Source: an uncultured Pseudomonadales bacterium
Lineage (GTDB): Bacteria > Patescibacteriota > Microgenomatia > UBA1400 > PJMF01
Direction of reading: 5' to 3'
Length of the DNA: 60,839 nucleotides
Assembly (NCBI GenBank): GCA_964555515.1
Contig: CAZKSJ010000001.1
Location: forward strand, 11,421-72,259
Both the position numbers and the translations under genes were made by a program. Positions 17,971 to 44,325 of this stretch are shown piece after piece; within the stretch, counting starts at the first letter, position 1, and each line of letters starts with the position of its first letter. The notes under the pieces are model-generated. The model saw only the letters and a list, made by a program, of their open reading frames with translations, was not told the origin of the DNA and did not search any database.

Positions 17971-18006
17971 AATAAAACACCCCCCCGCCTTTGGCAGGGG
18001 GGTGTT
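17971..18006 (-). terminator. Rho-independent terminator of the pilin gene/pilus operon
   Basis: The minus strand reads AACACCCCCCTGCCAAAGGCGGGGGGGTGTT followed by TTATTCT. It is a GC-rich stem about 20 nt after the pilA stop. Confidence 0.7.
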
Positions 18007-19776: not shown

Positions 19777-20174
19777 TCTATTTCTCTCCAAGCATCAACG
19801 GTTAGTACGCCATTCTCGCGCTCTAGTTGTACTTCCACAATTCTCTGCGCTACCCCAATCTCACCAGTTGAGGTGACGACTATTGCCTCTGAACCGCTAA
19901 CCGTTATAACTGCTTGTCCATCACCTACGCTGAGCACTTCACCAGTATAACCTGGATCGCGAAGTAATCTCAAGATGGCATTTTCCGCACCACTTTCGGC
20001 AATCATGAGACTCTGATCTGCAATCAAGGCATTTGAAGAAATGGCGGTATTGTCTATCATCATCATGATGGCTGCAGTCGTGATTGTTGTTCCCACAATC
20101 ATAAAGATCAGTAAAGCAATCAAAATGCTACCTTGCTGGTCAGAAAATGCAGATTTATGGAATAGTTTCATCAT
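19773..20174 (-). CDS. Minor pilin, PilX/GspK-like (no Glu at +5)
   Basis: The leader ends in ..SDQQG and is followed by SILIALLIFMIVGTTITTAAIMMM. The hydrophobic N-terminus lacks E5, as in GspK/PilX-type pseudopilins. Confidence 0.6.
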   Translation of the reverse strand: MMKLFHKSAFSDQQGSILIALLIFMIVGTTITTAAIMMMIDNTAISSNALIADQSLMIAESGAENAILRLLRDPGYTGEVLSVGDGQAVITVSGSEAIVVTSTGEIGVAQRIVEVQLERENGVLTVDAWREIE

Positions 20175-20184
20175 TATTTATGAT

Positions 20185-20703
20185 CTATCTAATACCGATG
20201 GTTGATTGAAACTCTCTACTCTCCAAACCTGCATTTTGGATGATCGGGCTTGTAACTTGATAACTAACTCTCAAGGCATGTTTTCCCCCAGGATTGCCAA
20301 GCCTTTGGATTGAGAAATTACTTATTTCTGTATCATAATTTAATACTTGGGGAACATTCTGGATTGAAAGAGTTAATTGGTTATTTGCCACAGCATAGCT
20401 ATAAATCTGACCATCAATGCTTAATTCCATGCCAGACATCGTCTCTCCAAGAGATGAGGGTTGTTCTATCGAGCTGGACCTTTTAATATCATATGCCAAC
20501 CTGGTCAGGATATACTGGCCATCACGCTCCACTGCTGAAAGTGCTTGACTTTGGCTTTTTGCCTCTAAGATAGATAAAAACAAGGAACTCAGTTGCACCA
20601 AAATGAGCGACACCAATGCAAAATATAGCAGCAACTCCACCAAGGTATATCCTTTATCAAATCTTTTCTTAGTTAAATTATCCATTTTCATAATCAAGGC
20701 CAC
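20185..20703 (-). CDS. Minor pilin (PilW/GspJ-like prepilin)
   Basis: Prepilin motif ..RFDKG then YTLVELLLYFALVSLIL, with Glu at +5. Confidence 0.7.
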   Translation of the reverse strand: MALIMKMDNLTKKRFDKGYTLVELLLYFALVSLILVQLSSLFLSILEAKSQSQALSAVERDGQYILTRLAYDIKRSSSIEQPSSLGETMSGMELSIDGQIYSYAVANNQLTLSIQNVPQVLNYDTEISNFSIQRLGNPGGKHALRVSYQVTSPIIQNAGLESREFQSTIGIR

Positions 20704-20705
20704 AG

Positions 20706-22685
20706 CTAAGGAGAGTAATTGATAATTAATGAATCTACTACTGGCGTACTAGAGCTGTCGGCGGTTTCTAGAAAAACCTTATATTTAAAACACCTAGCAG
20801 GATTCTCATAGCCAGAACCATCGTCATCGATAGGTATTGACCCTTCATCTATAAAAAACGTAGAGCTTGTTCCGTCAGGACCGACAAAAATGTATGATGG
20901 TTCGACACAATTTCCGTTAACTGCATCTGCTACCGCAACTTGAAACTGCGCACTAGTTTGATTTGGAACAGTAATATTCGAAAGAATGTAATTATAGGCT
21001 GTAGAGTAACCAGCATCAAAATACTGAGACTCAAAGGTGCCTGTAGTAGAGAAAGAATCTCCTGCACCGCCCTCTATGATCTTAAACTCAGAGGTGTTAT
21101 CTTTACTCACTATATATGAATACGCCTCCCCGTCTTGCTCCAGAACCCCATCAACACCATAAACGCCAGTATCTAGATTGAGACTGCCGCACATGTTGGG
21201 ACTTGTTTCTGATGTTATATCAATAACCTGATACTCATTGCCGCCTGTACCAACTACAATGAGCTTGTTTTCTGTGACCAGCGCTAAATCATTAGGATTC
21301 ATGCCATTGGTGTCGTAAGTACCTATTGCAGGCAAAGATCCTGATTTGCTAGTGGTGTCTATTATGAATAATTCTCTCATGTCACCGGCCTCATCTGTAA
21401 TCAAATATGCTCTTGTGCCCGTTTCATTAACCTCCACATCTTTACCTCGTCTACTATTGACATTTGCATAACCCGCTCTTGATAAATCTCTGGGATTGGA
21501 GATGTCGATCAACTGCATTTCTCTCAGACCAAAATCCAGCGCCACGTAAGCGTAGTTACCCTTAACATCAACTCTGTAACCGGTTGCCGGCCAAAATACA
21601 TAAGGACTAAGATTAATTGAGTCTAATTCTGGCAGATTGCCAGATTTATTAGTTAAATCTACGGTGTGTAATTTTGGCCCGATTACTACGTATGCTACAT
21701 TACCAGAAACATATACTCCCTGGGCTGAACCCCACCAGTATGTGTCATTGAAAACAGCTACTTCCTGGCCTGTAGTTAGATCTATAACCAATAAGTCTTT
21801 AGATACGTCTCCTGTGGCAATATAGGCGTAATTTTCATCTATAAAAATGTCATTTGTATCATACCCCGCAATTTGATTTGCAATGTTTACTCCAGGAGGA
21901 TCGTCCTGACTAATATCCATCTCTACAAATACTCCATCAGTTCCATCAGTACCACTGAATGCCTTACCTTCAATGGCCCGAACAACTTTGGCTCGTCCTG
22001 TTCCAGGCAAATCCTTTTCCGTCCTGATGTAGTCACTTGGTTTGCACCAATTCCCTTTACCCCCAGAGCCTAAAATAATTTCTCCCCCATAATTGTTTAC
22101 TATTGCCGTACCACTAACTTCGCCATCCAAAAAATCAGCCTCACTTGTCTCAATGATTGACAAATTATCCAAATATCTTGTCATGTAAATTGAAGACGAA
22201 ATTTGCGATAAATTCGGTTGATTCCAACTGATCTGAATATCAATTTTCTTCGTTGAAGGGTCGACCAAACCTTCTGAATCAACTATATTTCCTTCCCCAT
22301 CTCTCATCACGTCAGAAATAGTTAGCTGTCTTAAAAAAAGACCGATTGTTTCTGAGCCCGCTGCTAGTGTCCAAGTCGATCCAGTTATCGCTGGGTGGTA
22401 AACACCATTGACAGCAATTGAGTCCCAATTGGCCTCCCTGATGACGCGAAGGGCTTCCGAAGTCTCTATTAGCAGTCCATTTGCCTGAATTCTATTTTCT
22501 CTCTGCACCGATCCCTGCTGAGTAGTTATGATGGCTCCAATTAGAGCGGGGGTGACGACTGCCATCAGTGCCATGACAACCAGGATCTCGATTAAAAGCT
22601 GACCAGATCTCAAATGAGCAAAGTGGAAGCTGCTTAAACGAGCAGTTATTAATCTAAGAAAGTTGATCTCAGTTTTTTTGCGCAT
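20706..22685 (-). CDS. Giant minor pilin: prepilin N-terminus fused to an LVIVD-repeat beta-propeller and a C-terminal beta domain
   Basis: Prepilin motif ..HLRSG then QLLIEILVVMALMAVV (E5). Repeats: ENYAYIATGDVSKDLLVIDLT, GNVAYVVIGPKLHTVDLT, GNYAYVALDFGLREMQLIDISNP, TRAYLITDEAGDMRELFIIDTT and NKLIVVGTGGNEYQVIDITS. Confidence 0.7.
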   Translation of the reverse strand: MRKKTEINFLRLITARLSSFHFAHLRSGQLLIEILVVMALMAVVTPALIGAIITTQQGSVQRENRIQANGLLIETSEALRVIREANWDSIAVNGVYHPAITGSTWTLAAGSETIGLFLRQLTISDVMRDGEGNIVDSEGLVDPSTKKIDIQISWNQPNLSQISSSIYMTRYLDNLSIIETSEADFLDGEVSGTAIVNNYGGEIILGSGGKGNWCKPSDYIRTEKDLPGTGRAKVVRAIEGKAFSGTDGTDGVFVEMDISQDDPPGVNIANQIAGYDTNDIFIDENYAYIATGDVSKDLLVIDLTTGQEVAVFNDTYWWGSAQGVYVSGNVAYVVIGPKLHTVDLTNKSGNLPELDSINLSPYVFWPATGYRVDVKGNYAYVALDFGLREMQLIDISNPRDLSRAGYANVNSRRGKDVEVNETGTRAYLITDEAGDMRELFIIDTTSKSGSLPAIGTYDTNGMNPNDLALVTENKLIVVGTGGNEYQVIDITSETSPNMCGSLNLDTGVYGVDGVLEQDGEAYSYIVSKDNTSEFKIIEGGAGDSFSTTGTFESQYFDAGYSTAYNYILSNITVPNQTSAQFQVAVADAVNGNCVEPSYIFVGPDGTSSTFFIDEGSIPIDDDGSGYENPARCFKYKVFLETADSSSTPVVDSLIINYSP

Positions 22686-23163
22686 GTATTACTCCCAACT
22701 GATTAATCTCAAAATTAATTTGATCACCAGTGGATATATTTACCATCACGAATGTGTCTAAATCAGAGTTATAGTTCACTACTTCACCACTAACAGGAGA
22801 AAAAATTATTTCTCTCTGAGGCAAAGTTACCGATGAAAAACTTAGGTCTTGGGGTAAAGAAACAACAATATTGGCAGAATCAGACACATTAAAAGTGTCA
22901 CCCTGAAACAAGATGTATTGGTCATCGTCCAAATACACACCATGTGGTAATACTTCGCCAACGTTGGTATAACTCCCTTGCATAGCCTGCATTTGTTGGC
23001 GTCTCATATCTGAGACAATGGTTTGTTGATACTCATTAATGTTAGTTCTGGGGATCAATCCTGATAACGAAATGCCCGATAAAGCAAACACCACCACAAA
23101 TAGCGACAACACAACTAATATTTCTACCAGAGTCATTCCTCTAGAATGTTTAGGATTTAGCAT
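22669..23163 (-). CDS. Minor pilin (GspH/FimT-like prepilin)
   Basis: Prepilin motif MLNPKHSRG then MTLVEILVVLSLFVVV, with Glu at +5. Overlaps the next gene by 17 nt. Confidence 0.7.
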   Translation of the reverse strand: MLNPKHSRGMTLVEILVVLSLFVVVFALSGISLSGLIPRTNINEYQQTIVSDMRRQQMQAMQGSYTNVGEVLPHGVYLDDDQYILFQGDTFNVSDSANIVVSLPQDLSFSSVTLPQREIIFSPVSGEVVNYNSDLDTFVMVNISTGDQINFEINQLGVIHAQKN

Positions 23164-23174
23164 AGCAAATTATA

Positions 23175-25424
23175 TTATTCACTTTCTTTCTTCGAACTAG
23201 CAAAAGATTCTTCAGGCACACTTTTGTCTCCATTTTGAGGACGTATTTTTTTTAGTTCCTTTTCAGTATAGACTGGCACTGTAAAACTAAAAGTAGAACC
23301 TTTGTCATGGCCATCCGACTCAACCCAAATTTTACCGCCATGCAACTCCACAATTGACTTACTGATATACAAACCTAAACCAGTACCTTGTGCCGCATCA
23401 CCATTGGAGGCATATGATTCCTTCAGCATGCCAAACTTTTTAAACAACTTGGTCATCTGATCTTTATTCAAACCAACCCCAGTATCGATGACACTTATCG
23501 TCACAAACTGCTTGGTGGCGGTTAAACAGATCCTCACCTTGCCATTAGAAGGAGTGAACTTGAGCGCGTTACCGATCAAGTTGGTCAACACTTCTGAAAT
23601 TTTGTCGCGATCAACCATCACATCTGGTAAATCTGACATTTTGTGAGTTTTAGTAGTCGGGCACTCAATGGTCACCTGTACTCCATGCTCTTCAGATCTA
23701 GGCTGAAATTCGCCCACGATTTGCTCCACCACCTCGCCAATATTTACCTGATCAATGTTGAGCACAATTCTGCCAGACTCAATTCTGGAAATGTTTAATA
23801 AATCATTAATCAATTGTGACATCCGGTTAGCTGACGCATAAGCTCGGTCTAAATAAAACTTTTGTTTCCGTTGCAACTTGCCGCCCTTTCCCGCCAGCGT
23901 CATCCAGATATAGTTCTTGATCGACACCATGGGAGTACGCAACTCATGCGAAGCAATTGATACAAATTCGTCTTTAAGTTTGTCTAGTTCCTGCAGTTTT
24001 TTATTGGCAGACACCAACTTGCCAGTTGCTCGATCAATTTCATCTTCTAAAGTAACATTAAATCTGCGAATTTCTTCATAGGCCTTGGCATTTTCGATGG
24101 CAACAGCTGCTTCTGAAGCAATAATGTTCACCAATTTTGCGTCCCGGTTGGAAAACGGATCTCCGGACAGCTTACCTCCCAGAGTAATTAAGCCAATTGT
24201 TTGGCCTTCTTTAATCATCTCAATGACCAACTCAAACTGGTACTTTTTGAATATATCCTGCAGTTTCGTGTCATTTAACGACTCATAAATCATCAACTCA
24301 TTGGGATGAAGAAGATCTCCAATCTCCTTTTCATCAATTACTGGAGTCTGATCATAACCTTCACTGATGACCTGATAAACTTCATTTTCCTCGATCAAAA
24401 TAATCATACCTCTACTAATTTTCATGTTGCTCAGCATCCGCTGTAATAATCTGCGGCATAAATCCTCCAAAAGCAGTGTCGAGGCCATGATTAGTGTTAA
24501 TTTGTGCAACAATTCTTCAAAATCGTAATAATCTTGATAAAAAATGTTATCTGTAGTCTTAGTGAGAAATCTTTTTAAGGGTTGTAGTGTAAAACCAACT
24601 ACAATTGAGAATAATACAAAGATGCCTGCCAAACGTAGATCTATCAAGCTGCCAAACACTAGGTTGGAAAATAAAAACAGAAAAATACTTTGAAAAGCGG
24701 CAAAAATTATGAGTATTAAAAAATATGACACGGTTCTAGCTAGCACTGGTCTGATATCCAGGAGTTGGTATCTACCGATAGCGGAAGCAATCGCAACTGC
24801 GCCCAACAAAAGAAATAATGGCGACCAGATGACGAACCAAGTCACATCAAAAATTAAGGGTAAAATCACGGTTGCCAAGAGCATTAATATCAAGCTGATA
24901 GAAATCCCCACAGCAATCAACTGGAGTTGCTGCCGTAAATAACCTTTGCTAAGTCGATATTTTCGGATCAAGCTTACTACTCCTCCCAAAACTGCCCCCA
25001 CCTGCAGCATCATGAACGACAGTACTGCCGGGCCGGCTTCAATTTTTAATGAGCCATCATCAATTGATACTTTGGAAAAAATCAAACCCATATAGGCCAA
25101 GATGAAGTTTAGTAATACCCACAACAAGAGTAGAGCTTGAATTTTCAGATTGAAAATTAATTTTTGTGTCGGGAAAACTTTCACAAAACAGAAAAAGAAA
25201 GGTCCTGCGGGAATAGCTGAAAAAAGAATCATTTTCGAAAAAAAGTCCAACCCAATCTGAGAATTAGTGGTTAAAGCTAAATAATTGAAAATTGGATACA
25301 GGCTAATACAAAATAAGAGGAACGCAAAATAAATATGCGTCCCGCTTCGTCGATTCTTAAGAAGGATGAAAAGCCCCAACACAAAACTCGTAAAGGCAGT
25401 AACGATCGCGACAATAAGTTCCAT
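23175..25424 (-). CDS. Sensor histidine kinase: multi-TM N-terminal domain, GAF-like domain, HisKA and HATPase_c
   Basis: About 8 TM helices in the first 290 aa. H-box FVSIASHELRTPM, N-box LTNLIGNALKFTP, and G-boxes DTGVGL and GTGLGLYISK. Confidence 0.85.
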   Translation of the reverse strand: MELIVAIVTAFTSFVLGLFILLKNRRSGTHIYFAFLLFCISLYPIFNYLALTTNSQIGLDFFSKMILFSAIPAGPFFFCFVKVFPTQKLIFNLKIQALLLLWVLLNFILAYMGLIFSKVSIDDGSLKIEAGPAVLSFMMLQVGAVLGGVVSLIRKYRLSKGYLRQQLQLIAVGISISLILMLLATVILPLIFDVTWFVIWSPLFLLLGAVAIASAIGRYQLLDIRPVLARTVSYFLILIIFAAFQSIFLFLFSNLVFGSLIDLRLAGIFVLFSIVVGFTLQPLKRFLTKTTDNIFYQDYYDFEELLHKLTLIMASTLLLEDLCRRLLQRMLSNMKISRGMIILIEENEVYQVISEGYDQTPVIDEKEIGDLLHPNELMIYESLNDTKLQDIFKKYQFELVIEMIKEGQTIGLITLGGKLSGDPFSNRDAKLVNIIASEAAVAIENAKAYEEIRRFNVTLEDEIDRATGKLVSANKKLQELDKLKDEFVSIASHELRTPMVSIKNYIWMTLAGKGGKLQRKQKFYLDRAYASANRMSQLINDLLNISRIESGRIVLNIDQVNIGEVVEQIVGEFQPRSEEHGVQVTIECPTTKTHKMSDLPDVMVDRDKISEVLTNLIGNALKFTPSNGKVRICLTATKQFVTISVIDTGVGLNKDQMTKLFKKFGMLKESYASNGDAAQGTGLGLYISKSIVELHGGKIWVESDGHDKGSTFSFTVPVYTEKELKKIRPQNGDKSVPEESFASSKKESE

Positions 25425-25430
25425 TGAGCT

Positions 25431-26579
25431 CTAGGATAAATCTACCGCCTCCAAAACACTTCTGCGTGGCGTGTGAATTTCCCTATTACCACTATACCCT
25501 AATCGAAAAAACATGTGGGGAGTGAGTTTGGGAATCTTGAAAAAGGACTTTAAAAATGTGGGATAATTTTGATTTTCGACGAGCGCTGCCATGGGCGTGG
25601 TGCTAATACCAAATTTTCTAGATACTAACGCAATTAATTGGTAGGCAATGCCTGCATTAATCCAACTAAGAGTATCGTCCTGACTGCCAGCAATGATGCC
25701 AACCGCCGGTGCAGAATTCAAGTTTTTGGCATCTTTGATCGATTGAATTTTGAGTGGCAAGACAAAGTAACGAATCACAACTGGACCCACCCAGGACATC
25801 AACATTGGTAAGCCAGAAACAAACCCAGGCATACCGTCTGAACGCTTGGTGTTATTTGCGCGCAACCACTGGCTTAGTTCATCTCTAAATAATCGATCCG
25901 CAGACATCTCGTATGCTGCCTGACGATACTGTCCAGCCAACAACTTAATCGCCTCCTCTCCCTGCTCAATTCTAAATTCTTGACTGGAAAAAATTGTCAC
26001 GTACCTGGTTGCTAATTCCATAATTCGGCAAGGTATACGCTTGGGCAGATACTTTCCCTTATCGGAGTAACGTGTGGTGATGCTGTCAAAAAGAGCCCTG
26101 AGCAAAAGCAACCTCACTTCACTACCAACACTTTTTTGTTTCTGAAAACTAACTTGAATAAAGGATTTAGTTGCCACTAATTGCTGATTGCCAATCATCA
26201 TTTGATTGTCTGCACGATCTTGCGATTGCTGGCCAGGTTGGTGGGAACTAGAATAGGGGTGGAAGTCTGATTGATCGCCTACCACCGTAAAGAAAGTTTC
26301 ATAGCCATAAGCGGCAGCAGTTACCTGAACATTAGCTATAAAACAACCCAAACTGACAAATATCCCCCGATTCTTGGGGTCAGCTGCAGGCAAACAAAGC
26401 TGATAGTTAGGTTTAATCAACAAACCATGTTCATAAATCTGCAACTTCCACGGCTGAGTATTATGAGTTGAGGGCGCCAGTATACCCGCCTTAAGACTTT
26501 CAATTATCACTATCGCTAAAGACTGACCTGATTGGGGGTGGTGTAAATGCTGCCAAGCATTGTAGTTCTTAGTTTTCAC
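25431..26579 (-). CDS. Acg-type (double-domain) nitroreductase-family protein
   Basis: N-terminal signature ILAPSTHNTQPWKL and GIFVSLGCFIANVQVTAAAYGYE, plus a second nitroreductase-like half. Its start codon directly abuts the stop of the ThiF-like gene (26579/26580). Confidence 0.65.
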   Translation of the reverse strand: MKTKNYNAWQHLHHPQSGQSLAIVIIESLKAGILAPSTHNTQPWKLQIYEHGLLIKPNYQLCLPAADPKNRGIFVSLGCFIANVQVTAAAYGYETFFTVVGDQSDFHPYSSSHQPGQQSQDRADNQMMIGNQQLVATKSFIQVSFQKQKSVGSEVRLLLLRALFDSITTRYSDKGKYLPKRIPCRIMELATRYVTIFSSQEFRIEQGEEAIKLLAGQYRQAAYEMSADRLFRDELSQWLRANNTKRSDGMPGFVSGLPMLMSWVGPVVIRYFVLPLKIQSIKDAKNLNSAPAVGIIAGSQDDTLSWINAGIAYQLIALVSRKFGISTTPMAALVENQNYPTFLKSFFKIPKLTPHMFFRLGYSGNREIHTPRRSVLEAVDLS

Positions 26580-27671
26580 TCAAATGACCTCCATCATATC
26601 CTCAATGCCAAACAAACTGGGAAAATGAACTTTAGTTTGTTGACTGGGAATCTTTTTTTGTAAAGCAATCTGTCTGACTAAAAAAGCAACTAATCCCGCT
26701 CCAACGGTGACTGAACTGAATAGCTGTGGTCTACCTGCAAGATTTTTCTCCAATTGTGCCACCGAGTTTCTCGCTCTGAGCGGCACATTATTTTTCCCAA
26801 CCAAAGTCACAGCCAACATTTTTTTCTGATCGTCTGGCAGTTGATTGTTGACAATTTTCTCTAGCAACGCTGGGGTAACCCTACCATGAAACGGCTGCAA
26901 AGACCCAAGATCATAGCGTTCAACATCAAATAGCACTGAGTCACCGAGGTTGGTGCACATCACCAGAGGCAAGAGATGCTCTTGAGCAGTCAATCTGAGC
27001 AACACTTTCATCGGAAAGTCATCAATGGCATCAATTATCAGCTGCGGCCGAAATTTGCCTTTCATTAATTCTTGCAACAATTGATCGGATGCTCTGGTTT
27101 TTATAACATTCAGCTTGAGAAATGGATCAAGTTGGTACAAATCTTGCGCCATCCGCTCCGCTTTGGACTGGCCTACCGCCAATAAATCTACCGGCACGCG
27201 GTTTAGATTAGAAATCGCGAAAGTATCATCATCACAAATGGTCATGTTTTGAGCACCACCACCTTGGATGATAGCTCTAGCAATCACTCCACCAATTGAC
27301 ATACCAAAAATGGCTACTTTAAAGTTACGAAGCTGCAACTGCTCTTCAAAAGTAATTAGCTCTCGGTTGCGATTAGTTCGCAGAGCAAAAAATTCCTGCT
27401 CTGGCAGCAAATGAATAATTATCTCTCTCCAAGGATAATAAACCCACGTGCCGGAAATATGATTCTTGGGTTTGAGTCTTTCATCGATAAAAGCCCGCAG
27501 TTTTTGCAGATTGCTCGCTTCTGATGGATGAATAATTCCAAAAAGTTCCTCTAACTGTTGCTCATAATGATCGATGATGGTTACTTTAGGATGGTGAAGT
27601 AACCATTCTTTCAAATCTTTGCGTGAGTGTGATTCAGCTGAAAATATGAGTGGTGAGCTGTCTTGCTGCAT
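26580..27671 (-). CDS. ThiF/E1-like adenylyltransferase-family protein (Rv1355c N-terminal-half-like)
   Basis: RTNRNRELITFEEQLQLRNFKVAIFGMSIGGVIARAIIQGGGAQNMTICDDDTFAISNLNRV is an E1 Rossmann signature with an atypical Gly loop (GMSIGG). There are no C-terminal CxxC pairs. Confidence 0.7.
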   Translation of the reverse strand: MQQDSSPLIFSAESHSRKDLKEWLLHHPKVTIIDHYEQQLEELFGIIHPSEASNLQKLRAFIDERLKPKNHISGTWVYYPWREIIIHLLPEQEFFALRTNRNRELITFEEQLQLRNFKVAIFGMSIGGVIARAIIQGGGAQNMTICDDDTFAISNLNRVPVDLLAVGQSKAERMAQDLYQLDPFLKLNVIKTRASDQLLQELMKGKFRPQLIIDAIDDFPMKVLLRLTAQEHLLPLVMCTNLGDSVLFDVERYDLGSLQPFHGRVTPALLEKIVNNQLPDDQKKMLAVTLVGKNNVPLRARNSVAQLEKNLAGRPQLFSSVTVGAGLVAFLVRQIALQKKIPSQQTKVHFPSLFGIEDMMEVI

Positions 27672-27688
27672 TCTACATTAATCATTTG

Positions 27689-29215
27689 TTACTTATTAAT
27701 CCATCGCTGCTTAATAACTGGGTTAAAGTATTTGGGATGGTGATGTTCCCAAAAAATAACATTTGGCTCAGCACGACCATCGATGGTTTCATAGGTTCTT
27801 CTGTATGGTGAGTTTTCAATTTTCAACCTTTCAACAAGTGTGTCTGTGACTGCTTGCTTGAGTGATTCTGAATTAGTCACACCGTTTTTCAACTCCACAT
27901 TAATATCCAACCGCTGATTGTGATCTGGGTCATACTTAACTTCCATAGTGAATCTGCCTGTGACTGAATTTTCTAACACAGGACTTAGTAGAGCACGTCT
28001 AATTGTCTCTGGATAGACAGTAAAACCATAAAAACTCACCGAAAAATCACGCCTTTCGTAAACGTACACAAAGGGCAACTGCCAAATTGTGTGATCAATT
28101 TTTAACTCCTTGGCAACCTGTTTCAAATCAACACCATGGTCGTTAAAGTTGTTGAGCATGGTTTCATAGGAAATCACTCTGCCTCGATCTTTTAAGTCGT
28201 ATCTAGTTAGGGGGAGGCCGCTGTAGGCAGAACAAATTAAATCGCCGTCAACATCTTCAAAATAGAACATATCTGGGAAAAATTGAGTTAAGGTAGGTAC
28301 TCTGTATATTTTATTAAACACCTGATCAAAAAGTGGTTTAATTTGATAGGCTTGTCTTCTTGCCATAATTGACAGGGGAGTTTCATAAGACATGGTACCC
28401 AAGTCAACGGTGCCATATTGATTCAAGGTATGAGTATAAATATTATCTAAGCCAGTTGCTTTCGCGACATAGTCCCGAAAAGACTCACTAAAAACTTCAG
28501 CCGCAAAAATAAAGCCAAGCTTGTGATTTGTCCAATCTAAACCATCTCTTTTGGCTTCATCTAAAGTATCTTTGAGAAAAGGACCGTAACTACCAATGAT
28601 AATTTGGTCAAAATAAGGTCCCAATTGTTTGACCGCTTTAATGATCTCTTGAGCGCTCACACCTGGGGTAATGACGCTCAATGGATAGTGCCTGGTATCG
28701 GCAATGTACTTGATAGCTTGATACGTAAATAAACCCCCGATCCACTGTCCCATGGGAAAGCCCACAATGTACAATGTGGACTTTTTATCAACTTGAAAAT
28801 TCGTCAACAGGTAGAGCTCTGCCATCGAAGCGTACTGCCAATCTTGATCACTTTCTCTAGGAAAATAGAATGGTTCACCAGTTGAACCTGTGGTTGATGC
28901 CACGGTGGAGTGCTTGGATGATAATTTGCCGTCCCAAGATAACGCATCGAGAGGGTATTGTCTTAAATAACTATCCTTACTGACAGGGGGAACTTTTTTA
29001 AAATCAGCAATGGTTTTAATGGTTTGGGGCTTAATTTTGTGTTTATGTAAAAAGTCTCGATAAGCTGGCACTCTCAGCGACATCTGGTGAAAAAGCTGCA
29101 ACACGCGCACATCACCTCTTTTTTGCCAGTATGATTCTGGATTATGTTTTAATTTGTGAAGCAGCTTGGCTGGCTGCAGATAACCAGATGCAATTAATTT
29201 CCGCTTATTCTTCAT
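27689..29215 (-). CDS. Adenylate-forming enzyme, PaaK / CapK / coenzyme F390 synthetase-like (COG1541)
   Basis: AMP-binding core STTGSTGEPFYFP, 508 aa. Overlaps the upstream dehydrogenase gene by 11 nt. Confidence 0.7.
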   Translation of the reverse strand: MKNKRKLIASGYLQPAKLLHKLKHNPESYWQKRGDVRVLQLFHQMSLRVPAYRDFLHKHKIKPQTIKTIADFKKVPPVSKDSYLRQYPLDALSWDGKLSSKHSTVASTTGSTGEPFYFPRESDQDWQYASMAELYLLTNFQVDKKSTLYIVGFPMGQWIGGLFTYQAIKYIADTRHYPLSVITPGVSAQEIIKAVKQLGPYFDQIIIGSYGPFLKDTLDEAKRDGLDWTNHKLGFIFAAEVFSESFRDYVAKATGLDNIYTHTLNQYGTVDLGTMSYETPLSIMARRQAYQIKPLFDQVFNKIYRVPTLTQFFPDMFYFEDVDGDLICSAYSGLPLTRYDLKDRGRVISYETMLNNFNDHGVDLKQVAKELKIDHTIWQLPFVYVYERRDFSVSFYGFTVYPETIRRALLSPVLENSVTGRFTMEVKYDPDHNQRLDINVELKNGVTNSESLKQAVTDTLVERLKIENSPYRRTYETIDGRAEPNVIFWEHHHPKYFNPVIKQRWINK

Positions 29216-30260
29216 GAGATTCTATTTTCTGTTGATTGATTTCATCGGCAATGAGATGTGGTGATCGCTTAGTTTTGTAACTCAAGCTAAATATCTGGTC
29301 AAGCTCTGCTGCTATTTCATCAAGTTTCTTCATCACCCGCTGATGATTCCGCCGAGGATATTCATACTCATCGACCACGCTGATTAAACCGCCGGCATTA
29401 ATAATGTAATCAGGTGTGTAAAGTATATTTCTTTGATAAAGTAGGTCACCCATGTTTGGGGCAGACAATTGGTTATTTGCCCCACCAGCCACCAACTTGC
29501 ACTGCAGTTGCTTGACAGTCTTTTCATTGATGATACCGTACATGGCGCATGGTACAAAAACATCAACTGGCAACATAGTAATGGCTTCTGGTTTAACCAA
29601 TTCTATTTTTGGATACATTTTTTTAATTTTGGCGGCCACGTTATCCAATACATCAGTAGCATAAATCTTGGCTGCAGTAGGATAAAGTTGGTTAAGCACC
29701 CCAGATCCAATTTTTCCCAGACCCTGGATAGCAAAAGTTCTTTGATGAAATTCATCATCACCAAAGACATGCTTCAAGCCAACTTTCATTCCTTTGATGA
29801 TGCCGGCCACGGTGTACTTAACCGGGTCTATTTCACCACCCACCACGTGTTGACTAGACTTCTTGAGTTGTTTCACCTGCTCTTGGCTCATACCTATGTC
29901 AGCACCTGTAATAAACCGTCCTGCCAATAAATTAACATCGTCGGCATAGGCGGCGATCATTTGCGGAGTAACATCCTCAGGACGAGCAATAATGACCGCT
30001 TTTGCTCCACCGTAAGGCAAGTTGGCGGCGGCGGACTTAAAAGACATTATTTTTGCTAAGCGCAGCGCATCTTTTAACGCTTCAATTTGATTTGAATAAG
30101 GATAAATTCTTGTAGCTCCAAAAGCCTTGAGTTTTTTTGAGCCACGGTGAATAGCAATGAATCCTTCTAACTTGCTGGCTGGATGCCTGAGATAAACCAC
30201 CAAACGGTGTTGATCATACTCTTTTAAGTCAAGATGCGATGATGAATTGCTTTGTGTCAT
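29205..30260 (-). CDS. Glu/Leu/Phe/Val-type amino-acid dehydrogenase (Leu/Phe dehydrogenase-like size)
   Basis: Catalytic Lys motif NLPYGGAKAVII, dinucleotide fold FAIQGLGKIGSGV, and VAGGANNQL. 351 aa. Confidence 0.8.
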   Translation of the reverse strand: MTQSNSSSHLDLKEYDQHRLVVYLRHPASKLEGFIAIHRGSKKLKAFGATRIYPYSNQIEALKDALRLAKIMSFKSAAANLPYGGAKAVIIARPEDVTPQMIAAYADDVNLLAGRFITGADIGMSQEQVKQLKKSSQHVVGGEIDPVKYTVAGIIKGMKVGLKHVFGDDEFHQRTFAIQGLGKIGSGVLNQLYPTAAKIYATDVLDNVAAKIKKMYPKIELVKPEAITMLPVDVFVPCAMYGIINEKTVKQLQCKLVAGGANNQLSAPNMGDLLYQRNILYTPDYIINAGGLISVVDEYEYPRRNHQRVMKKLDEIAAELDQIFSLSYKTKRSPHLIADEINQQKIESHEE

Positions 30261-30325
30261 TGATCCCTAAAACTTGCCCATAACTTTTACTTGATTTTTC
30301 TGAATGCTATCAGTATGCTTGGCCT

Positions 30326-30790
30326 ATGAACACTTCACTTGTAGAACCCTCAAATCCAGTCAAAAAAGCTCAATCAGCTGATGTCAGTAATCCTACTACA
30401 AAAGCTGCCAATAGCAAAAATGGTAAAAAAGTCCTCATTGCTGATGATGAATTATACATCAGGGAACTTTATGAAGAAGTGCTGATCAGTGAAGGCTATG
30501 TGGTTGAGGGGGTTGCAGACGGTAAAACAGCCTTGGACAAAATTTCTGAGGGAGGATGGGATCTCATTACCTTAGATGTGATCATGCCCAAGTTGGATGG
30601 CCTAGGAGTACTCACCAAGCTCCAAGAATCGCCGCCAAAAAAGAAGAATGGGCCGATTATTTTACTGACTAGTCTGGCCAATGATCCTGCAGTTCAGGAG
30701 GCTCAAAAAAAAGGCGCTGCGCAAGTCATCATCAAAACTGAAATCACCCCCAAACAATTTGTGGATCTGGTCAACAAAACCATTGGGTAA
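30326..30790 (+). CDS. Single-domain (CheY-like) response regulator with a 35-aa disordered N-terminal extension
   Basis: KKVLIADDELYIRE, phospho-acceptor context DLITLDVIMPKLDG, and ILLTS...IIKTE. No output domain. Divergent from the enzyme operon across 65 bp. Confidence 0.85.
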   Translation: MNTSLVEPSNPVKKAQSADVSNPTTKAANSKNGKKVLIADDELYIRELYEEVLISEGYVVEGVADGKTALDKISEGGWDLITLDVIMPKLDGLGVLTKLQESPPKKKNGPIILLTSLANDPAVQEAQKKGAAQVIIKTEITPKQFVDLVNKTIG

Positions 30791-30860: not shown

Positions 30861-31916
30861 CTATCTGCCCCCAACTGAACCAATCAAACCATAAATAGGA
30901 GCGATGATCGCCATCATCATGCCCCCCACAGCCAGTCCCACAAATACTAGCAAGAGAGGTTCTAATAAGGCAGTCATTTTCTTCACAGATTTACTCACTT
31001 TGTAATCCATGTTATCAGACACGTTTTGCATGGCCTCTTCGAGAGTGCCGCTTTTTTCGCCAACCTCCATCAATTTAATGATAATTCCAGGAATAATATT
31101 ACGCTTGCTCTGCAGACCATGAGAAAAAGGATGACCTGCTAAAGCTTGCTCACGTGCCTTATCTACCAGATCTCTCACTTCCTTTTTCAAAATGACTTCT
31201 TGAGCAAGCTCTAGAGAAGTTGTGATAGGAATACCAGAGGATAATAGTAAGTGTAAGCTCCGGCTAAACCTGGTTAGATCAATCTCTCTGATTAATTTAG
31301 AAACTCCCGGAAATGAAAGCACAATTTGGAGCATCAGCTCACGTTTGGTTTGATAGAGAACAAACAACAAGGCAATTAATAAAAACAAAATACCCAAGAC
31401 AATTAGCCAGTTATTTATTAATAAATTAGATGTATATATCAATGCTTTTGTAGCCATAGGCAACTTGACATTCAACCTACTAAATACTGTGGAGATTCTT
31501 GGAATAACAAACAGCAGCATTCCTAATAAAACGCTAATAAAAACGATCATCACCACAATTGGGTAAAACATGGCAGACTTGACGCCATCTATAAATTCCA
31601 TCTCTTTCTTGATGTTGCCCTGCAAATCGCGCAGTGTTTCCTCAAGCGTGCCAGCCTCTTCAGCTGCTTTGATCAAGCTGACCGTTACCTTGTCAAAGGT
31701 GTATGGATACCGAGAAAAGGAGTCAGAGATCTGCTTGCCAGCGGTGACATCCTCCCGCAAAGATAACAAAATCTTTTTTTGATTTCCTTTTGCTTCTGAT
31801 AAAAGCGAGTCCACTGTTTCTGAAATAGGAATTCCGGCCGACAGCATGGTCGTCATGTTGGCAATCAATCCAATTTTTTCTTCCTGAGACAGTCTGATTC
31901 TGCCAAATCCCAACAT
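30861..31916 (-). CDS. pilC: Type IV pilus platform protein PilC (GspF family)
   Basis: Two T2SF repeats with the typical ..AGIPI..ALE pattern (LSAGIPISETVDSL and LSSGIPITTSLELA) and 3 TM segments. Starts 3 nt after the pilB stop. Confidence 0.85.
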   Translation of the reverse strand: MLGFGRIRLSQEEKIGLIANMTTMLSAGIPISETVDSLLSEAKGNQKKILLSLREDVTAGKQISDSFSRYPYTFDKVTVSLIKAAEEAGTLEETLRDLQGNIKKEMEFIDGVKSAMFYPIVVMIVFISVLLGMLLFVIPRISTVFSRLNVKLPMATKALIYTSNLLINNWLIVLGILFLLIALLFVLYQTKRELMLQIVLSFPGVSKLIREIDLTRFSRSLHLLLSSGIPITTSLELAQEVILKKEVRDLVDKAREQALAGHPFSHGLQSKRNIIPGIIIKLMEVGEKSGTLEEAMQNVSDNMDYKVSKSVKKMTALLEPLLLVFVGLAVGGMMMAIIAPIYGLIGSVGGR

Positions 31917-31919
31917 TGC

Positions 31920-33614
31920 TTACTCCGTTTCAGTCTTGGTGACTCGCAACACTTCTTCAATGGTGGTTAAGCCTTTAGTAATTTTTTCAATGCCATCATC
32001 AAACATGCTGGTTAACCCTTCCTTAATTGCCTGCTCACTGATGGTATCTACATCCGCTTTTTTGGCTACCAACTCTCGCAAGGCTTTTGATAATTCCAAG
32101 ACTTCATAAATTCCCAATCTACCCTTATAACCAGTGTTGTGACATGCCCGACAACCTTGGCCGCGATAAACCCTGACTTCCTTTTTGTCACCCACTGGAA
32201 TGTAATGCTTGTTGATAGTTTCAAGTGACAAGTATTTTTGTAGTTCAGTCACCGGAATTGTTTCAGAAACTCGGCAATGAGGACAAATTCTTCTGACTAG
32301 CCTTTGGGCCACGATTATGTGCACCGTACCAGCTACCAAAAATGGTTCTACTTTCATGTCGAATAGTCTGGGCAGAGAAGAGACCGCATTATTGGTATGG
32401 AGCGTAGAAAAAACCAAGTGACCGGTCAACGCCGCGTTAATTGCAATCGAAGCAGTTTCGTTATCTCTAATTTCCCCGACAAAAATATAATCAGGATCTT
32501 GCCTTAACAATGATCTTAAGCCATTGGCAAAAGTCAGGTTTGTCTTTTCATTAACCTGAACTTGATTTGCACCTTTAATCCGGTACTCAACAGGATCTTC
32601 AATACTGGTTAAGTTGGTCTCTCGAGTATTAATTGTCTTCAAAATTGAGTAGATGGTGGTAGTTTTTCCAGACCCAGTCGGACCAGTCACCAAGATCATG
32701 CCATAAGTTCTGGCAGCAGCTTTTTTAATTTTCACAAGATCTGTCTCATTGATGCCCAGCTCTTGCAATGAATATGACCGTGCTTGAGAGGTTAGCAGCC
32801 TCATCACCACTTTCTCTCCTTCCGCAATGGGAATGATGGAGACACGCAAATCTAGCCTCTCTCCTTTAATATCCATCTTAATCTTGCCGTCTTGTGCGGC
32901 CAAGTGCTGATCTGTGCGCAAGCTTGCTAAAACCTTGATTCTGGTTACAATTCTACCCAATAGCTCCTTCGGTAAATTGGCGATGTCGTGCAGAATGCCA
33001 TCAATCCTGAATCTGACCAGTACCGCATCCTCATTTGGCTCAATATGAATGTCTGAGGCGTGTTCTAAGTAAGCAGCTCTAATCACCTCATCAACCAATT
33101 TTTTAATTGGTGGATCATGTGCGACCGTGCGCACGACTCTGCCATCTGCTTCATTGAGTAACTTGCTAAAAATTTCTTGAAAATCGGTGTGGTAATTCAG
33201 TAAAGTTTGATTTAAATCCTGTTCTGTCGCAAAAAACATCTTGACCTGCTTACCAGTTTTCTGAGCCACCAGCTTGGGTAAGATTTGATTCCTAAAATCG
33301 GCTGTGGCAATACTGACAAACTTTTCATCCTCGGCGAAAGTAATCATTTTGTGACGTTTAGCCACTTCTTCGGGAATAATTCCTAAAGTCTCATCAGAGA
33401 TGTCCAACTTGCTCAACTCAATAAAGGGAACTTTAATTGCCTCAGCCACCATCTTTCCCATTGCCTGATCCGTAATGTAGCCTTTTTCAACCAAACCATC
33501 CCAAAGACTTACTTCGGTTTCTTCTGCAAACTTGATTACTTGCTTGAGATCTGCTTCGGCGATAATTTTTTTAGCCAACAGTAAATTGCTGAGTTGGGCA
33601 TCAGTCAGTTGCAT
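31920..33614 (-). CDS. pilB: Type IV pilus assembly ATPase PilB (GspE family)
   Basis: N-terminal GSPII_E_N-like domain, Walker A VTGPTGSGKTTT, Asp box, His box FSTLHTN, and tetracysteine CPHC...CRACHNTGYKGR. Confidence 0.9.
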   Translation of the reverse strand: MQLTDAQLSNLLLAKKIIAEADLKQVIKFAEETEVSLWDGLVEKGYITDQAMGKMVAEAIKVPFIELSKLDISDETLGIIPEEVAKRHKMITFAEDEKFVSIATADFRNQILPKLVAQKTGKQVKMFFATEQDLNQTLLNYHTDFQEIFSKLLNEADGRVVRTVAHDPPIKKLVDEVIRAAYLEHASDIHIEPNEDAVLVRFRIDGILHDIANLPKELLGRIVTRIKVLASLRTDQHLAAQDGKIKMDIKGERLDLRVSIIPIAEGEKVVMRLLTSQARSYSLQELGINETDLVKIKKAAARTYGMILVTGPTGSGKTTTIYSILKTINTRETNLTSIEDPVEYRIKGANQVQVNEKTNLTFANGLRSLLRQDPDYIFVGEIRDNETASIAINAALTGHLVFSTLHTNNAVSSLPRLFDMKVEPFLVAGTVHIIVAQRLVRRICPHCRVSETIPVTELQKYLSLETINKHYIPVGDKKEVRVYRGQGCRACHNTGYKGRLGIYEVLELSKALRELVAKKADVDTISEQAIKEGLTSMFDDGIEKITKGLTTIEEVLRVTKTETE

Positions 33615-33635: not shown

Positions 33636-34886
33636 TTAGCTAAAATGAAACTTTTTATCACCCAAAAAACCAGTTACTTCTGGTCTAATTTTTTCTTTCT
33701 GAATTAGTAAACCTGAGGTAACGGTGAATAATCCATAGCGATCATTTAAAACATCAACTGCTTTAGCAATCTGTTCTTGTTGCCACCAGTGGGGAAACCA
33801 ACAATCTTGGACTTCAGACCAGGGCTTGAGAAGAGACATACCAACGTGCAGTCTAATCACGGGAAAACGATCTTGCCAGCTGGGATATAACTTATACCTA
33901 ATCAAGTCAAACATTTCACTAACGTGTCTCACATAATATTTCAAAGTGAGATGATCTGCCCAAGACTGATCATCTCCAGCCAGTGAACAAAAAACTAGCC
34001 TGCCGGCCAACTCCATCTTGCGCAATTTGTGAATTACTTCTTCTGAAAGATTATAGAGCGTAGACATGATTAAGTCTTGGCTGCTACTCAATCTATATCC
34101 TGTGATTGAACGACTAACGCTTTTCATGTGCGGCAAGTTATCTGCCAGGCGCTTTAAAAAAAGCGGCTCTTCACCACGACCCATCTTGCGCAACTCCACA
34201 CTCCAAAATGGACCAAACATTGACGCCAAAATTTCAGTAGGAACAAAATTAATTTGATAAGGCACGGTCACCCCAATTCTGCTCAAGCGCTTGGCCAGAC
34301 GCGGCCCAATCCCGCAGACGTCTTTAAACTGGGTCGTGGCTAAAATTAGCAATTTATTTTCCTCGGTGACTTGCCGCACGCTACCTTTGGGGGCAGTTTC
34401 ACCGATCATCTTGGCTAAAAACCTATTTTCAGCAATACCAATGTTGCAAGTCACCCACCCCCCCAACACACACTTCACTTGCTCCTGAATTTGGAGAGCA
34501 AAATCATGAGGTGAAGCATATAAATTTTGAACTTGGGAGTAGTCTATAAATACTTCATCCAAAGAAAAGACTTCAGTGGTTGGAGTAAGGTTGTCAAATA
34601 ACTCCTTTAAGCGCTTGGTAGCCGAGAAGTACATTTCAAAAGCAGCCGGCATCTCAATCAAATTGGGAGCAAGTTGATATGCTTCTGCTAAAGAACAACC
34701 AGTACTGATACCTTTTAATTTTGCTTCTTTGGAGGCAGCAATCACACAACTTCTACCCAGTTCTTTAACTACCACCACTGGTTTGTGACGTAAAGCGGGC
34801 GTTTCTTGTTGCAACAGAGTAGCAAAATAGGAATTAATATCAATGTGTAATACAATGCGTTTTTTTTGATTAATCAATTCATTCAC
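33636..34886 (-). CDS. dinB: Y-family DNA polymerase (DinB/Pol IV-like)
   Basis: IVLHIDINSYFATLLQQETP and FSLDEVFIDYS (catalytic D and DE retained), plus CGIGPRLAKRL (HhH). 21 nt upstream of pilB on the same strand. Confidence 0.8.
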   Translation of the reverse strand: MNELINQKKRIVLHIDINSYFATLLQQETPALRHKPVVVVKELGRSCVIAASKEAKLKGISTGCSLAEAYQLAPNLIEMPAAFEMYFSATKRLKELFDNLTPTTEVFSLDEVFIDYSQVQNLYASPHDFALQIQEQVKCVLGGWVTCNIGIAENRFLAKMIGETAPKGSVRQVTEENKLLILATTQFKDVCGIGPRLAKRLSRIGVTVPYQINFVPTEILASMFGPFWSVELRKMGRGEEPLFLKRLADNLPHMKSVSRSITGYRLSSSQDLIMSTLYNLSEEVIHKLRKMELAGRLVFCSLAGDDQSWADHLTLKYYVRHVSEMFDLIRYKLYPSWQDRFPVIRLHVGMSLLKPWSEVQDCWFPHWWQQEQIAKAVDVLNDRYGLFTVTSGLLIQKEKIRPEVTGFLGDKKFHFS

Positions 34887-35148
34887 ACCACACCTCCGCT
34901 AATTCCCACACCTCTTCACTTCTATCAAAAATCAGACGATAACTATTACCCTGTGACAAGACTGAGTACTGTCGTTTGCTAATTCGACTATCACGAATTT
35001 CTGAAATAAAAGTAACTTGATCGACTGCATATATCCTGCCTTGCCACTCGAATTTTTTAGGAATGAAGCGCGCTTGTTTATAAACACCAATTACATTAAT
35101 GCGCTCACCAATTGCTTGGTACATATTAGCTTTTTCTTCTAAGTTCAT
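34879..35148 (-). CDS. Small protein translationally coupled to the Y-family polymerase, function unknown
   Basis: 89-aa ORF overlapping the polymerase start by 8 nt, with no recognised motif. Its position is analogous to UmuD/YolD-type accessory genes. Confidence 0.4.
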   Translation of the reverse strand: MNLEEKANMYQAIGERINVIGVYKQARFIPKKFEWQGRIYAVDQVTFISEIRDSRISKRQYSVLSQGNSYRLIFDRSEEVWELAEVWCE

Positions 35149-39404: not shown

Positions 39405-39413
39405 AATTATTTT

Positions 39414-44313: not shown

Positions 44314-44325
44314 GGATTATTAATC

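Follow-up and report, generated by a model that had tools for sequence, protein, structure and literature searches.

A sensor-kinase-linked cassette with ThiF-cyclase and flavin-oxidase relatives, widespread in Patescibacteria and set within a type IV pilus locus

Why does a run of enzyme genes ending in a membrane histidine kinase lie between the assembly genes and the pilin genes of a type IV pilus locus? The question is raised by 60,839 nt of contig CAZKSJ010000001.1 from an uncultured member of the Patescibacteriota (this whole stretch is called the window here; 50 of its 61 open reading frames (ORFs) were scanned with Pfam). The genes encode an amino-acid dehydrogenase (DH), a PaaK-fold adenylate-forming enzyme (PaaKL), a ThiF-like adenylating enzyme, a nitroreductase-fold flavin oxidase (FDO) and a seven-transmembrane (7TM) histidine kinase (HK), with a receiver-only response regulator (RR) beside them (Table 1). 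Comparison with relatives shows that they are one copy of a self-contained cassette widespread in Patescibacteria, also known as the candidate phyla radiation (CPR). The reading favoured here, with modest confidence, is an amino-acid-derived small-molecule synthesis-plus-sensing module that has been wired into the pilin operon in this clade.

The chemistry is most readily approached through the ThiF-like protein and the FDO. The ThiF-like protein (structure model pLDDT 88) matches NF005901, the Rv1355c family, with 232 bits over model positions 9-336, the ThiF half, and reaches at most 54 bits against ThiF, MoeB and TcdA models. The window FDO matches the same NF005901 model with 47 bits, while CPR proteins in which the two are fused score 377-381 bits across positions 11-646 of 722; the curated cut-off is 476 bits and a Mycobacterium control (L082) scores 989 bits. 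Against NF047509, the Acg family, the FDO scores 172 bits with a cut-off of 199, and its best solved match is Acg itself (PDB 2ymv). The invariant residues of the ThiF-like protein (G123xSxG127, D149, N155xNR158, K170 and D217) align with mycobacterial TrzS-type proteins, and the family has no invariant Cys or CxxC motif in alignments of 46 and 18 sequences. When window, CPR, Streptomyces, Mycobacterium and Nocardia sequences are aligned, the ThiF parts have in common W..YPW, RxxRN, GxSxG, DxD, SNLNR, a Lys, the adenylation Asp (D217 in the window) and DxERYD, and the FDO parts APSxxNxQPW, a central Arg and a C-terminal Arg; as a comparison of the FDO active site with TrzS, these are general FMN-site signatures only.

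Proteins of this kind have been characterised. OxzB of Pseudoalteromonas was the first example of such a ThiF/FDO enzyme (10.1101/2020.06.11.147165). TrzS (Rv1355c) cyclises N-acyl-tryptophan at the expense of ATP and then desaturates it with O2, giving acyl-tryptazolone (PMC12856293), and the separate proteins TyzB (ThiF) and TyzC (FDO) carry out the same conversion (PMC10404671). In other phyla, clusters that combine an N-acyl amino acid synthase (NAS), a ThiF protein and a nitroreductase yield N-acyl-dehydrotyrosines (PMC12479983). By sequence profile, the nearest solved relatives of the window's ThiF-like protein are 9egb (66.2 bits) and TcdA (65.9 bits). TcdA forms an oxazolone ring on tRNA (PMC12596934); 9egb, listed as AclA of Tenacibaculum discolor, adds no functional information, since no paper describing it was found. 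On this homology, the ThiF-like protein and the FDO are probably a split version of the ThiF-cyclase/flavin-oxidase that makes acyl-oxazolones and N-acyl-dehydroamino acids, and their substrate is likely to be a small acylated amino acid, cyclised by the one and desaturated by the other. A first-pass annotation of the same DNA had found that the genes matched no pathway known to it. For this pair the statement is incorrect, because a ThiF cyclase with a nitroreductase-superfamily oxidase is the characterised machinery of OxzB, TyzB/TyzC and TrzS.

The window FDO has one peculiarity, a Q/S-rich low-complexity insertion of about 45 residues (residues ~103-150, positions 26130-26273; …HPYSSSHQPGQQSQDRADNQMMIGNQQ…). 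It is absent from the homologues in L002 and L004 and from the CPR-fused, Streptomyces and mycobacterial homologues (L numbers denote genomic loci).

The distribution of the cassette was surveyed in 80 genomic loci gathered with a ThiF profile (18 closer sequences), together with several found by exact-protein look-up, and all their ORFs were scored against the window proteins. The census set comprises 58 non-redundant loci in which ThiF and PaaKL occur within 8 kb; since many loci end at contig ends, the component counts are lower bounds. Within the same distance, 54/58 loci have an FDO, 43 a full 7TM HK despite shuffled gene order, 43 a DH (23) or a class-I aminotransferase (20), 29 a receiver-only RR and 18 an alpha/beta-hydrolase. 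Gene order differs by lineage (DH-PaaKL-ThiF-FDO-HK; aminotransferase<-|->PaaKL-ThiF-FDO(::hydrolase)-HK; FDO-DH-PaaKL-ThiF-hydrolase-HK) while content is kept. Look-ups seeded with PaaKL gave a cassette with HK and RR in four cases out of four. The homologues come from Roizman-, Woese-, Woyke- and Pacebacteria, Saccharimonadia, Parcubacteria and other Patescibacteria. Outside CPR, PaaKL-ThiF-FDO trios without an adjacent HK occur in Streptomyces (L058, L060, L067, L074), and a DH-containing version, also without HK, in Margulisbacteria (L018).

Fusions are found in several combinations: ThiF::FDO (L008, L010, L087), FDO::alpha/beta-hydrolase (L004, L006, L089 and others), ThiF::hydrolase (L020) and, among database proteins, DH::PaaKL (P0361), PaaKL::ThiF (P0344), ThiF::PaaKL (P0450) and DH::PaaKL::ThiF (P0438). 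A 630-aa Saccharimonadales "abhydrolase" begins with an FDO that is 28% identical to that of the window (E 3e-29). Some fusions could be gene-calling merges, a general explanation made unlikely by the four architectures. Together with the contiguity of the genes, which overlap or are separated by no more than 17 nt, the fusions tie DH, PaaKL, ThiF and FDO into one pathway.

Some loci gathered in the survey stand apart. In the Streptomyces trios the PaaKL-like proteins score ~250 bits and ThiF matches NF005901 with 320 bits; a Pfam scan around the L058 trio found uninformative neighbours. Being cultivable, these hosts are potentially tractable models of the chemistry. A PaaKL homologue with 57% identity (P0021) is labelled as a Jordarchaeaceae archaeon metagenome-assembled genome, and L009, L011, L012, L031, L048 and L059 as uncultured Gammaproteobacteria. 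As they carry CPR-type cassettes, such loci are probably mis-binned or mislabelled, the alternative being horizontal transfer. In Flavobacteriales and Sphingobacteriales (L051-L056, L066, L068, L070, L081), stand-alone ThiF-like genes (~150-170 bits) occur without PaaKL and FDO, repeatedly with a ~727-aa protein showing a weak kinase-core match encoded ~700 nt downstream. This looks like a separate, uncharacterised arrangement.

The two enzymes at the head of the cassette point to the supply of the substrate. Against PDB sequences, the DH scores 216 bits with leucine dehydrogenase (LeuDH, 6acf), 206 with tryptophan dehydrogenase (TrpDH, 5b37), 128 with phenylalanine dehydrogenase and less than 64 with glutamate dehydrogenase. 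Its position is taken by a class-I aminotransferase in 20 loci and in L093 by an aromatic amino-acid ammonia-lyase of the PAL/HAL family (TIGR01226, 305 bits), followed by PaaKL-ThiF-HK. Dehydrogenase, aminotransferase and ammonia-lyase all strip an amino acid of its alpha-amino group, giving a 2-oxo or alpha,beta-unsaturated acid. PaaKL has no Pfam match and matches NCBIfam PaaK, F390 and FlxY models weakly (~1e-9). It scores 34 bits on TIGR02155 (PaaK), whose cut-off is 646, and has no paa genes around it; by sequence it does not belong to PaaK. Its AlphaFold model (pLDDT 85.8) superposes on PaaK1 with TM-scores of 0.65/0.76 and also resembles the small ANL enzymes BT_0428, ClxA and 2-hydroxyisobutyryl-CoA ligase. 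Residues invariant in 36 homologues include the P-loop T108-G113, Y267-G-T, R338/Y339/D343 and K502, with the hinge Asp and a C-terminal Lys among them; these intact ANL motifs support competence for adenylation. PaaKL is the most conserved protein of the cassette, with homologues in more than 1,670 clusters at 90% identity that are 53-60% identical to the query and spread across CPR classes. An exhaustive search returned 493 clusters at 50% identity with E<=1e-30.

These activities can be arranged into a route. A deaminating enzyme, in the window the LeuDH/TrpDH-like DH, would turn a hydrophobic or aromatic amino acid into an acid lacking the alpha-amino group, a step suggested by the exchange of dehydrogenase, aminotransferase and ammonia-lyase among relatives. 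PaaKL would then adenylate this acid and couple it through an amide bond to a second amino acid, at the amino group of the latter, giving an N-acyl amino acid. That step would replace the acyl-CoA-dependent N-acyltransferase of known pathways, leaving amino acids and ATP as the sole inputs. The ThiF-like enzyme would adenylate the free carboxylate and drive cyclodehydration to an oxazol-5-one, as its homology to TrzS, TyzB and OxzB suggests, and the FDO, by homology to TyzC and the FDO domain of TrzS, would desaturate C-alpha/C-beta. Many relatives also encode an alpha/beta-hydrolase, as a separate protein or joined to FDO or ThiF, which may open the reactive azlactone or transfer it; the window has no such gene. 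Making N-acyl amino acids from amino acids and ATP alone would suit CPR bacteria, generally seen as poor in fatty-acid and coenzyme A (CoA) metabolism. Whether PaaKL makes the N-acyl amino acid as proposed is finely balanced, with doubt slightly the heavier.

Both parts of a two-component system are also present: the kinase has HisKA and HATPase domains and an H-box, and the receiver a phospho-acceptor Asp. In the window HK, an N-terminal HisKA_7TM domain (54.6 bits) is followed by GAF (25.7), HisKA (60) and HATPase_c (94) domains, and the H-box reads SHELRTP. The RR is a receiver only, in which the acidic pair D40/D41, the phospho-Asp D83 (LDVIMP), the T/S and K136 are readable. Their persistence beside the enzymes through rearrangements argues that HK and RR form a functional pair, and their adjacency suggests that they partner each other. 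As a dedicated signalling arm, they would most likely be triggered by the product or by some related cue soluble in membranes, and would act via protein-protein contacts, judging from co-location. That the HK reads the product of the cassette is a tentative proposal. An amino-acid-derived signal read by the adjacent kinase was one of two roles that the first-pass annotation had suggested, and it is the one best compatible with the evidence, although the sensing itself is drawn only from conserved co-location.

In the clade of the window, the cassette occupies a particular place in the pilus locus. PilC orthologues in Patescibacteria are 58-81% identical, and the order pilB-pilC-RR-[variable genes]-HK-pilins is kept in L001, L002, L092 and L093. 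The RR orthologue holds the same position in these four and in L094, which lacks the cassette. What lies between pilB-pilC-RR and the pilins differs from locus to locus. L002, the most distant by PilC score, has the full DH-PaaKL-ThiF-FDO-HK series, with a ThiF 41% identical to that of the window. L093 (PilC 65%) has the ammonia-lyase, PaaKL, ThiF and a 7TM HK without FDO. L092 (PilC 70%) has a 373-aa protein, a divergent 489-aa ThiF-like protein (hhalign probability 97%) and a 7TM HK. In L094 (PilC 58%) the slot is empty of both enzymes and HK, the order being pilB-pilC-RR-pilins, and the window's pilin/LVIVD gene series directly follows pilC/RR. From these contents, the interval from RR to the pilins is a fixed site with variable content in this clade. 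In all occupied slots (L001, L002, L092, L093) the orthologue of the first pilin gene overlaps or abuts the HK gene; translational coupling of the two would physically couple pilin expression to the module. These observations support a functional tie of the circuit to piliation that is specific to the clade, and the RR probably acts on the pilus system or its function.

The replacement in L092 can be followed in detail: the 373-aa and 489-aa genes (L092:11598-14203) stand in for DH, PaaKL, ThiF and FDO. The 373-aa protein has no match in Pfam, NCBIfam or a profile comparison with PaaKL, and the slot may hold a different chemistry at the same locus.

The tie to pili is confined to this clade. 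The first-pass annotation had proposed a pilus-linked pathway, which stands for the window's own clade with its fixed slot and fails as a general statement, for pilB or pilC lies within 8 kb in 3/58 loci and any prepilin-motif ORF is nearby in 4/58. With 3 of 58 loci near pilB/pilC, the clusters lie mostly away from pilus genes, the first half of what that annotation had itself named as speaking against its proposal.

Several points weigh against the synthesis-plus-sensing reading. Its least secure step is amide formation by PaaKL, a substitution hypothesis, since PaaK-fold enzymes are for the most part CoA ligases. No N-acyl amino acid synthase of the OxzA, TyzA, TrzA or NasY type was found in the contiguous cassette or among the Pfam-scanned ORFs of the window, and CPR cassettes are likewise gap-free, with no room for an N-acyltransferase gene. 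The ThiF-like protein (and the CPR fusions, at 381 bits) and the FDO score below the NCBIfam cut-offs given above, so that on sequence scores they are relatives of the characterised families rather than members. The FDOs characterised so far consume O2, and an anaerobic life is common in CPR. Desaturation is evidently not obligatory, since FDO is absent from the cassettes of L090 and L093. The HK may sense something other than the product and merely regulate the pathway, and the RR lacks an output domain. Finally, a literature search on CPR and oxazolones, narrow in scope, returned unrelated gut-microbiome papers only and no description of the cassette in CPR.

The closest rival keeps the enzymes and changes the role of the kinase. 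Here the product would be membrane-associated or protective, a role also ascribed to the oxazolone "lipids" of Mycobacterium. HK and RR would answer to external stimuli, for instance contact with a host, stress on the envelope or redox state, and these stimuli would govern the activity of the enzymes or the behaviour of the pili. The oxazolone clusters described so far lack a sensor of their own and an established physiological role (PMC12856293; 10.1101/2020.06.11.147165), the Streptomyces and Margulisbacteria versions have no adjacent HK, and L094 retains the RR without HK or enzymes, all of which would fit. However, the 7TM HK stays adjacent through several independent rearrangements and enzyme exchanges, as a synthase-receptor pair would, and the RR has no DNA-binding domain through which to control the operon. 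This alternative is considered unlikely.

A different product is also conceivable. PaaKL and the ThiF-like enzyme might catalyse two successive ATP-dependent condensations of acids derived from amino acids, giving some other small heterocycle or amide (a primary amide, for instance, or a ring of the dehydro-diketopiperazine or pyrazinone-like type), with the FDO behaving like a cyclic-dipeptide oxidase; nitroreductase-fold cyclic dipeptide oxidases exist. The cassette has no N-acyltransferase, FDO is dispensable in some copies, ClxA, a PaaK-fold neighbour of PaaKL, adenylates aminohydroxybenzoate in a non-CoA context, and ThiF-like enzymes allow varied chemistries after adenylation (PMC12596934). 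Yet the closest characterised relatives of ThiF and FDO, the fused form included, are oxazolone synthetases, and a deaminating first enzyme points to a non-amino acyl donor rather than a dipeptide, which makes this product quite improbable.

Covalent modification of pilins or of another envelope protein, with ThiF activating a protein C-terminus, was the other role suggested by the first-pass annotation. It would draw on the location of the cassette between pilC and the pilins, on the translational coupling of HK and pilin genes, on the nature of azlactones as acylating agents and on the hydrolase- or transferase-like alpha/beta-fold partner of relatives. Against these stand the scarcity of pilus genes near the cassette (pilB/pilC at 3/58 loci, a prepilin-motif ORF at 4/58), a ThiF family without invariant Cys or CxxC, a small-ORF scan in which no small ORF ended in GG and none lay in an intergenic space, and a ThiF N-terminal region common to TrzS-type enzymes acting on small molecules. 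The proposal has no support from the analysis and is very unlikely.

The same searches bear on other systems built around an E1-like fold. Neither the cassette, the scanned ORFs of the window nor its small ORFs yielded a YcaO or a precursor peptide, and paa genes, a decarboxylase and ThiS/MoaD were missing from the cassette and from the scanned ORFs. The absence of YcaO, precursor peptide and ubiquitin-like protein (Ubl), reported from reading the sequence, agrees with the negative small-ORF scan and with a ThiF family lacking an invariant Cys. Two candidates were rejected on these grounds: E1/sulfur-carrier activation (ThiF-ThiS, MoeB-MoaD, Ubl), with no GG carrier ORF, no invariant Cys and at most 54 bits against ThiF/MoeB models, and an azoline pathway for ribosomally synthesised and post-translationally modified peptides (RiPPs; E1-like/YcaO/FMN dehydrogenase), whose YcaO and precursor peptide were not found. 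Catabolism of aromatic or branched-chain amino acids through a dehydrogenase and a PaaK-type CoA ligase, or a sulfur-carrier/Ubl or azoline-RiPP system, is accordingly the least probable of all the readings: DH plus a PaaK-fold ligase resembles the opening of amino-acid fermentation and an E1 fold is present, but the partners just listed are missing, PaaKL falls far below the PaaK cut-off and fusions join DH, PaaKL, ThiF and FDO.

Table 1. The pilus locus and the embedded cassette, in window coordinates
Feature	Positions	Strand	Evidence or remarks
PilB-type type IV pilus assembly ATPase (pilB)	31920-33614	-	T2SSE 428 bits + MshEN domain; TIGR02538 517 bits
PilC/GspF-type platform protein (pilC)	30861-31916	-	T2SSF 156 bits
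Receiver-only CheY-like response regulator (RR)	30326-30790	+	PF00072 alone
Divergent intergenic region, 65 nt	30261-30325	.	candidate unit start, from gene geometry
Leu/Trp/Phe-dehydrogenase-like amino-acid dehydrogenase (DH)	29205-30260	-	ELFV domains PF00208 + PF02812
PaaK-fold (ANL) adenylate-forming enzyme (PaaKL), 508 aa	27689-29215	-	11-nt overlap with DH
ThiF-like ATP-dependent adenylating enzyme	26580-27671	-	PF00899; 17-nt gap after PaaKL
Acg-type nitroreductase-fold flavin oxidase (FDO)	25431-26579	-	PF00881, NF047509; GTG start, 0-nt gap after ThiF
7TM-GAF-HisKA-HATPase histidine kinase (HK), 749 aa	23175-25424	-	6-nt gap after FDO
First minor (pseudo)pilin	22669-23163	-	N_methyl motif; 11 nt past HK stop
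Later pilus-operon genes: 659-aa LVIVD-repeat protein, 172-aa prepilin, 133-aa protein, 413-aa protein	18550-22685	-	LVIVD 52.9 bits, N_methyl matches
Major pilin, PilA-like (pilA)	18028-18501	-	N_methyl 31.5 bits; L094 orthologue 174 bits
Intrinsic-terminator-like hairpin	17976-18006	-	14-bp stem, 10 G-C pairs, T-rich tail

The layout of the locus agrees closely with what had been read from the letters (Table 1). The ORF map reproduces the earlier coordinates, gaps and overlaps to the base, including the 65 nt between the RR and DH starts; the family assignments are borne out by Pfam and NCBIfam profile scans (PF00208/PF02812, PF00899, PF00881) and, for the PaaK-like fold, by the AlphaFold model; and the motifs GGAK, STTGSTGEP, NLNR and APSTHNTQPW are present in the translations. 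The window has the hallmarks of a type IV pilus cluster, with a PilB ATPase, PilC as platform protein and prepilins that carry the N-terminal methylation motif. The five genes behind pilB-pilC are as tightly packed as described. The RR gene, however, lies between on the opposite strand, convergent with pilC and divergent from DH, so the pilB-pilC transcript probably does not simply run on into DH. From gene geometry, the block from DH to pilA probably starts in the 65-nt divergent region, where a sigma-70 consensus scan gave background level only and nothing convincing, leaving the promoter of the unit unlocated. The hairpin past pilA is the sole strong terminator-like site on the minus strand between 17.5 and 35.5 kb, in keeping with the earlier remark that none precedes the end of pilA. 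The arrangement is not due to chance, being kept in L001 and L002, whose ThiF proteins are 70% and 41% identical to that of the window.

Several neighbours were noted in passing. The 659-aa LVIVD-repeat (beta-propeller-like) protein (20706-22685, minus strand) has a pilin-like N-terminus, lies within the minor-pilin series and is kept in the pilus operons of all relatives (620-944 bits), making it a candidate pilus tip adhesin. A PD-(D/E)XK/Cas4-like nuclease gene (16916-17791, minus strand) lies directly past pilA and the terminator, likewise follows the pilin operon in L001, L002 and L094, and may be linked to pilus DNA uptake. Directly upstream of pilB (33636-35148, minus strand), a Y-family DNA polymerase (IMS) and a small DUF6504 protein are encoded in a synteny kept in L001, L002, L092 and L093. 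Two further two-component pairs occur at 38691-40091 and 42280-44742. In one, a sensor-less 237-aa HisKA/HATPase protein adjoins an OmpR-type regulator; in the other, a receiver-only regulator comes after a GAF-PAS-PAS kinase. A sortase gene (6840-7799) is followed by one for a 763-aa protein (7796-10087) without a Pfam family match. Rfam (gathering threshold) and tRNA scans of the whole window returned no match.

Patescibacteria have a minimal metabolism and depend on host cells, and type IV pili are central to their attachment, motility and DNA uptake. In such small genomes, strong selection on the cassette is marked by the conservation of the ligase, the hundreds of 50%-identity clusters, the fusions and the accompanying membrane HK. 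A wider and rather unlikely extension of the synthesis-plus-sensing reading would be a CPR-wide chemical signalling circuit, in which an oxazolone or dehydroamino-acid autoinducer made without CoA or fatty acids is received by the 7TM HK and the RR acts directly on pili. The synthase sets swapped within the window's clade (dehydrogenase/ligase/cyclase/oxidase; lyase/ligase/cyclase; the 373-aa protein plus divergent ThiF; none) would match the pattern expected of signal-specificity groups. If true, host-dependent ultrasmall bacteria would have a small-molecule communication system of their own, the first to be recognised in them, and oxazolone natural products would gain their first physiological role. 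The predictions made for the cassette, namely that N-acyl amino acids can be formed without CoA, that the 7TM kinase has a ligand and that the regulator acts on pili, could be tested directly with a small number of soluble enzymes. The cassette also joins the recently discovered ThiF/flavin-oxidase oxazolone chemistry, whose biological role is open even in Mycobacterium tuberculosis, to a dedicated sensor.

Among known systems, the oxazolone synthetases OxzA/OxzB of Pseudoalteromonas rubra, TyzA/TyzB/TyzC and TrzA/TrzS (Rv1356c/Rv1355c of mycobacteria) stand closest. Like the cassette, they combine a ThiF cyclase with a nitroreductase-superfamily oxidase, and motifs of both domains are held in common. 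The two are adjacent in TyzB/TyzC and in the window, and fused in OxzB, TrzS and the CPR relatives L008, L010 and L087. In contrast to the cassette, these systems have an N-acyl-homoserine-lactone-synthase-like N-acyltransferase that depends on acyl-CoA or acyl carrier protein, whereas PaaKL, the deaminating enzyme, the frequent alpha/beta-hydrolase and the dedicated 7TM HK and RR belong to the cassette only. The hosts differ as well, being CPR for the cassette and Proteobacteria or Actinomycetota for the synthetases. The N-acyl-dehydrotyrosine clusters of Stieleria, Thalassotalea and Massilia (NasY, ThiF and nitroreductase; PMC12479983) have the same operon-like pair of ThiF and nitroreductase. 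Their end product may be a ring-opened dehydroamino acid, and hydrolase-containing CPR cassettes may end likewise. They have the hallmark NAS enzyme and no kinase or regulator, the reverse of the cassette.

Flexirubin biosynthesis offers a parallel for the supply enzymes. FlxA, a tyrosine ammonia-lyase, and FlxY, a PaaK-like acyl-CoA ligase (NCBIfam NF053541/NF053551), follow a deaminase with a PaaK-fold ligase, as do the L093 lyase and PaaKL; the window PaaKL is a remote relative of FlxY (32 bits). In flexirubin biosynthesis the activated acid enters a polyketide pathway, whereas in the cassette a ThiF cyclase and an oxidase come after the ligase.

For the signalling arm, the comparisons are analogies. 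The cell-cell signalling loci CqsA/CqsS, LqsA/LqsS/LqsR and agr encode a synthase, a membrane receptor kinase and a regulator. The cassette is alike in layout only, with biosynthetic genes, varying at a fixed locus within one clade, beside a multi-pass HK and a regulator; it has no sequence homology to these loci and its RR lacks a DNA-binding output. PilG and PilH of the Chp system are CheY-like single-domain regulators of type IV pili, and like them the window RR is a receiver-only regulator within a pilus locus, staying by pilC even in L094. Unlike them, it has no Chp/CheA-type partners, its presumed partner being a 7TM kinase of the classical HisKA type. What is known is the core ThiF/FDO chemistry of the oxazolone type. 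What is new is the cassette as a whole, which dispenses with an N-acyltransferase and joins that core, with or without a hydrolase, to a deaminase and a PaaK-fold ligase on the one side and to a 7TM histidine kinase with its CheY-like regulator on the other.

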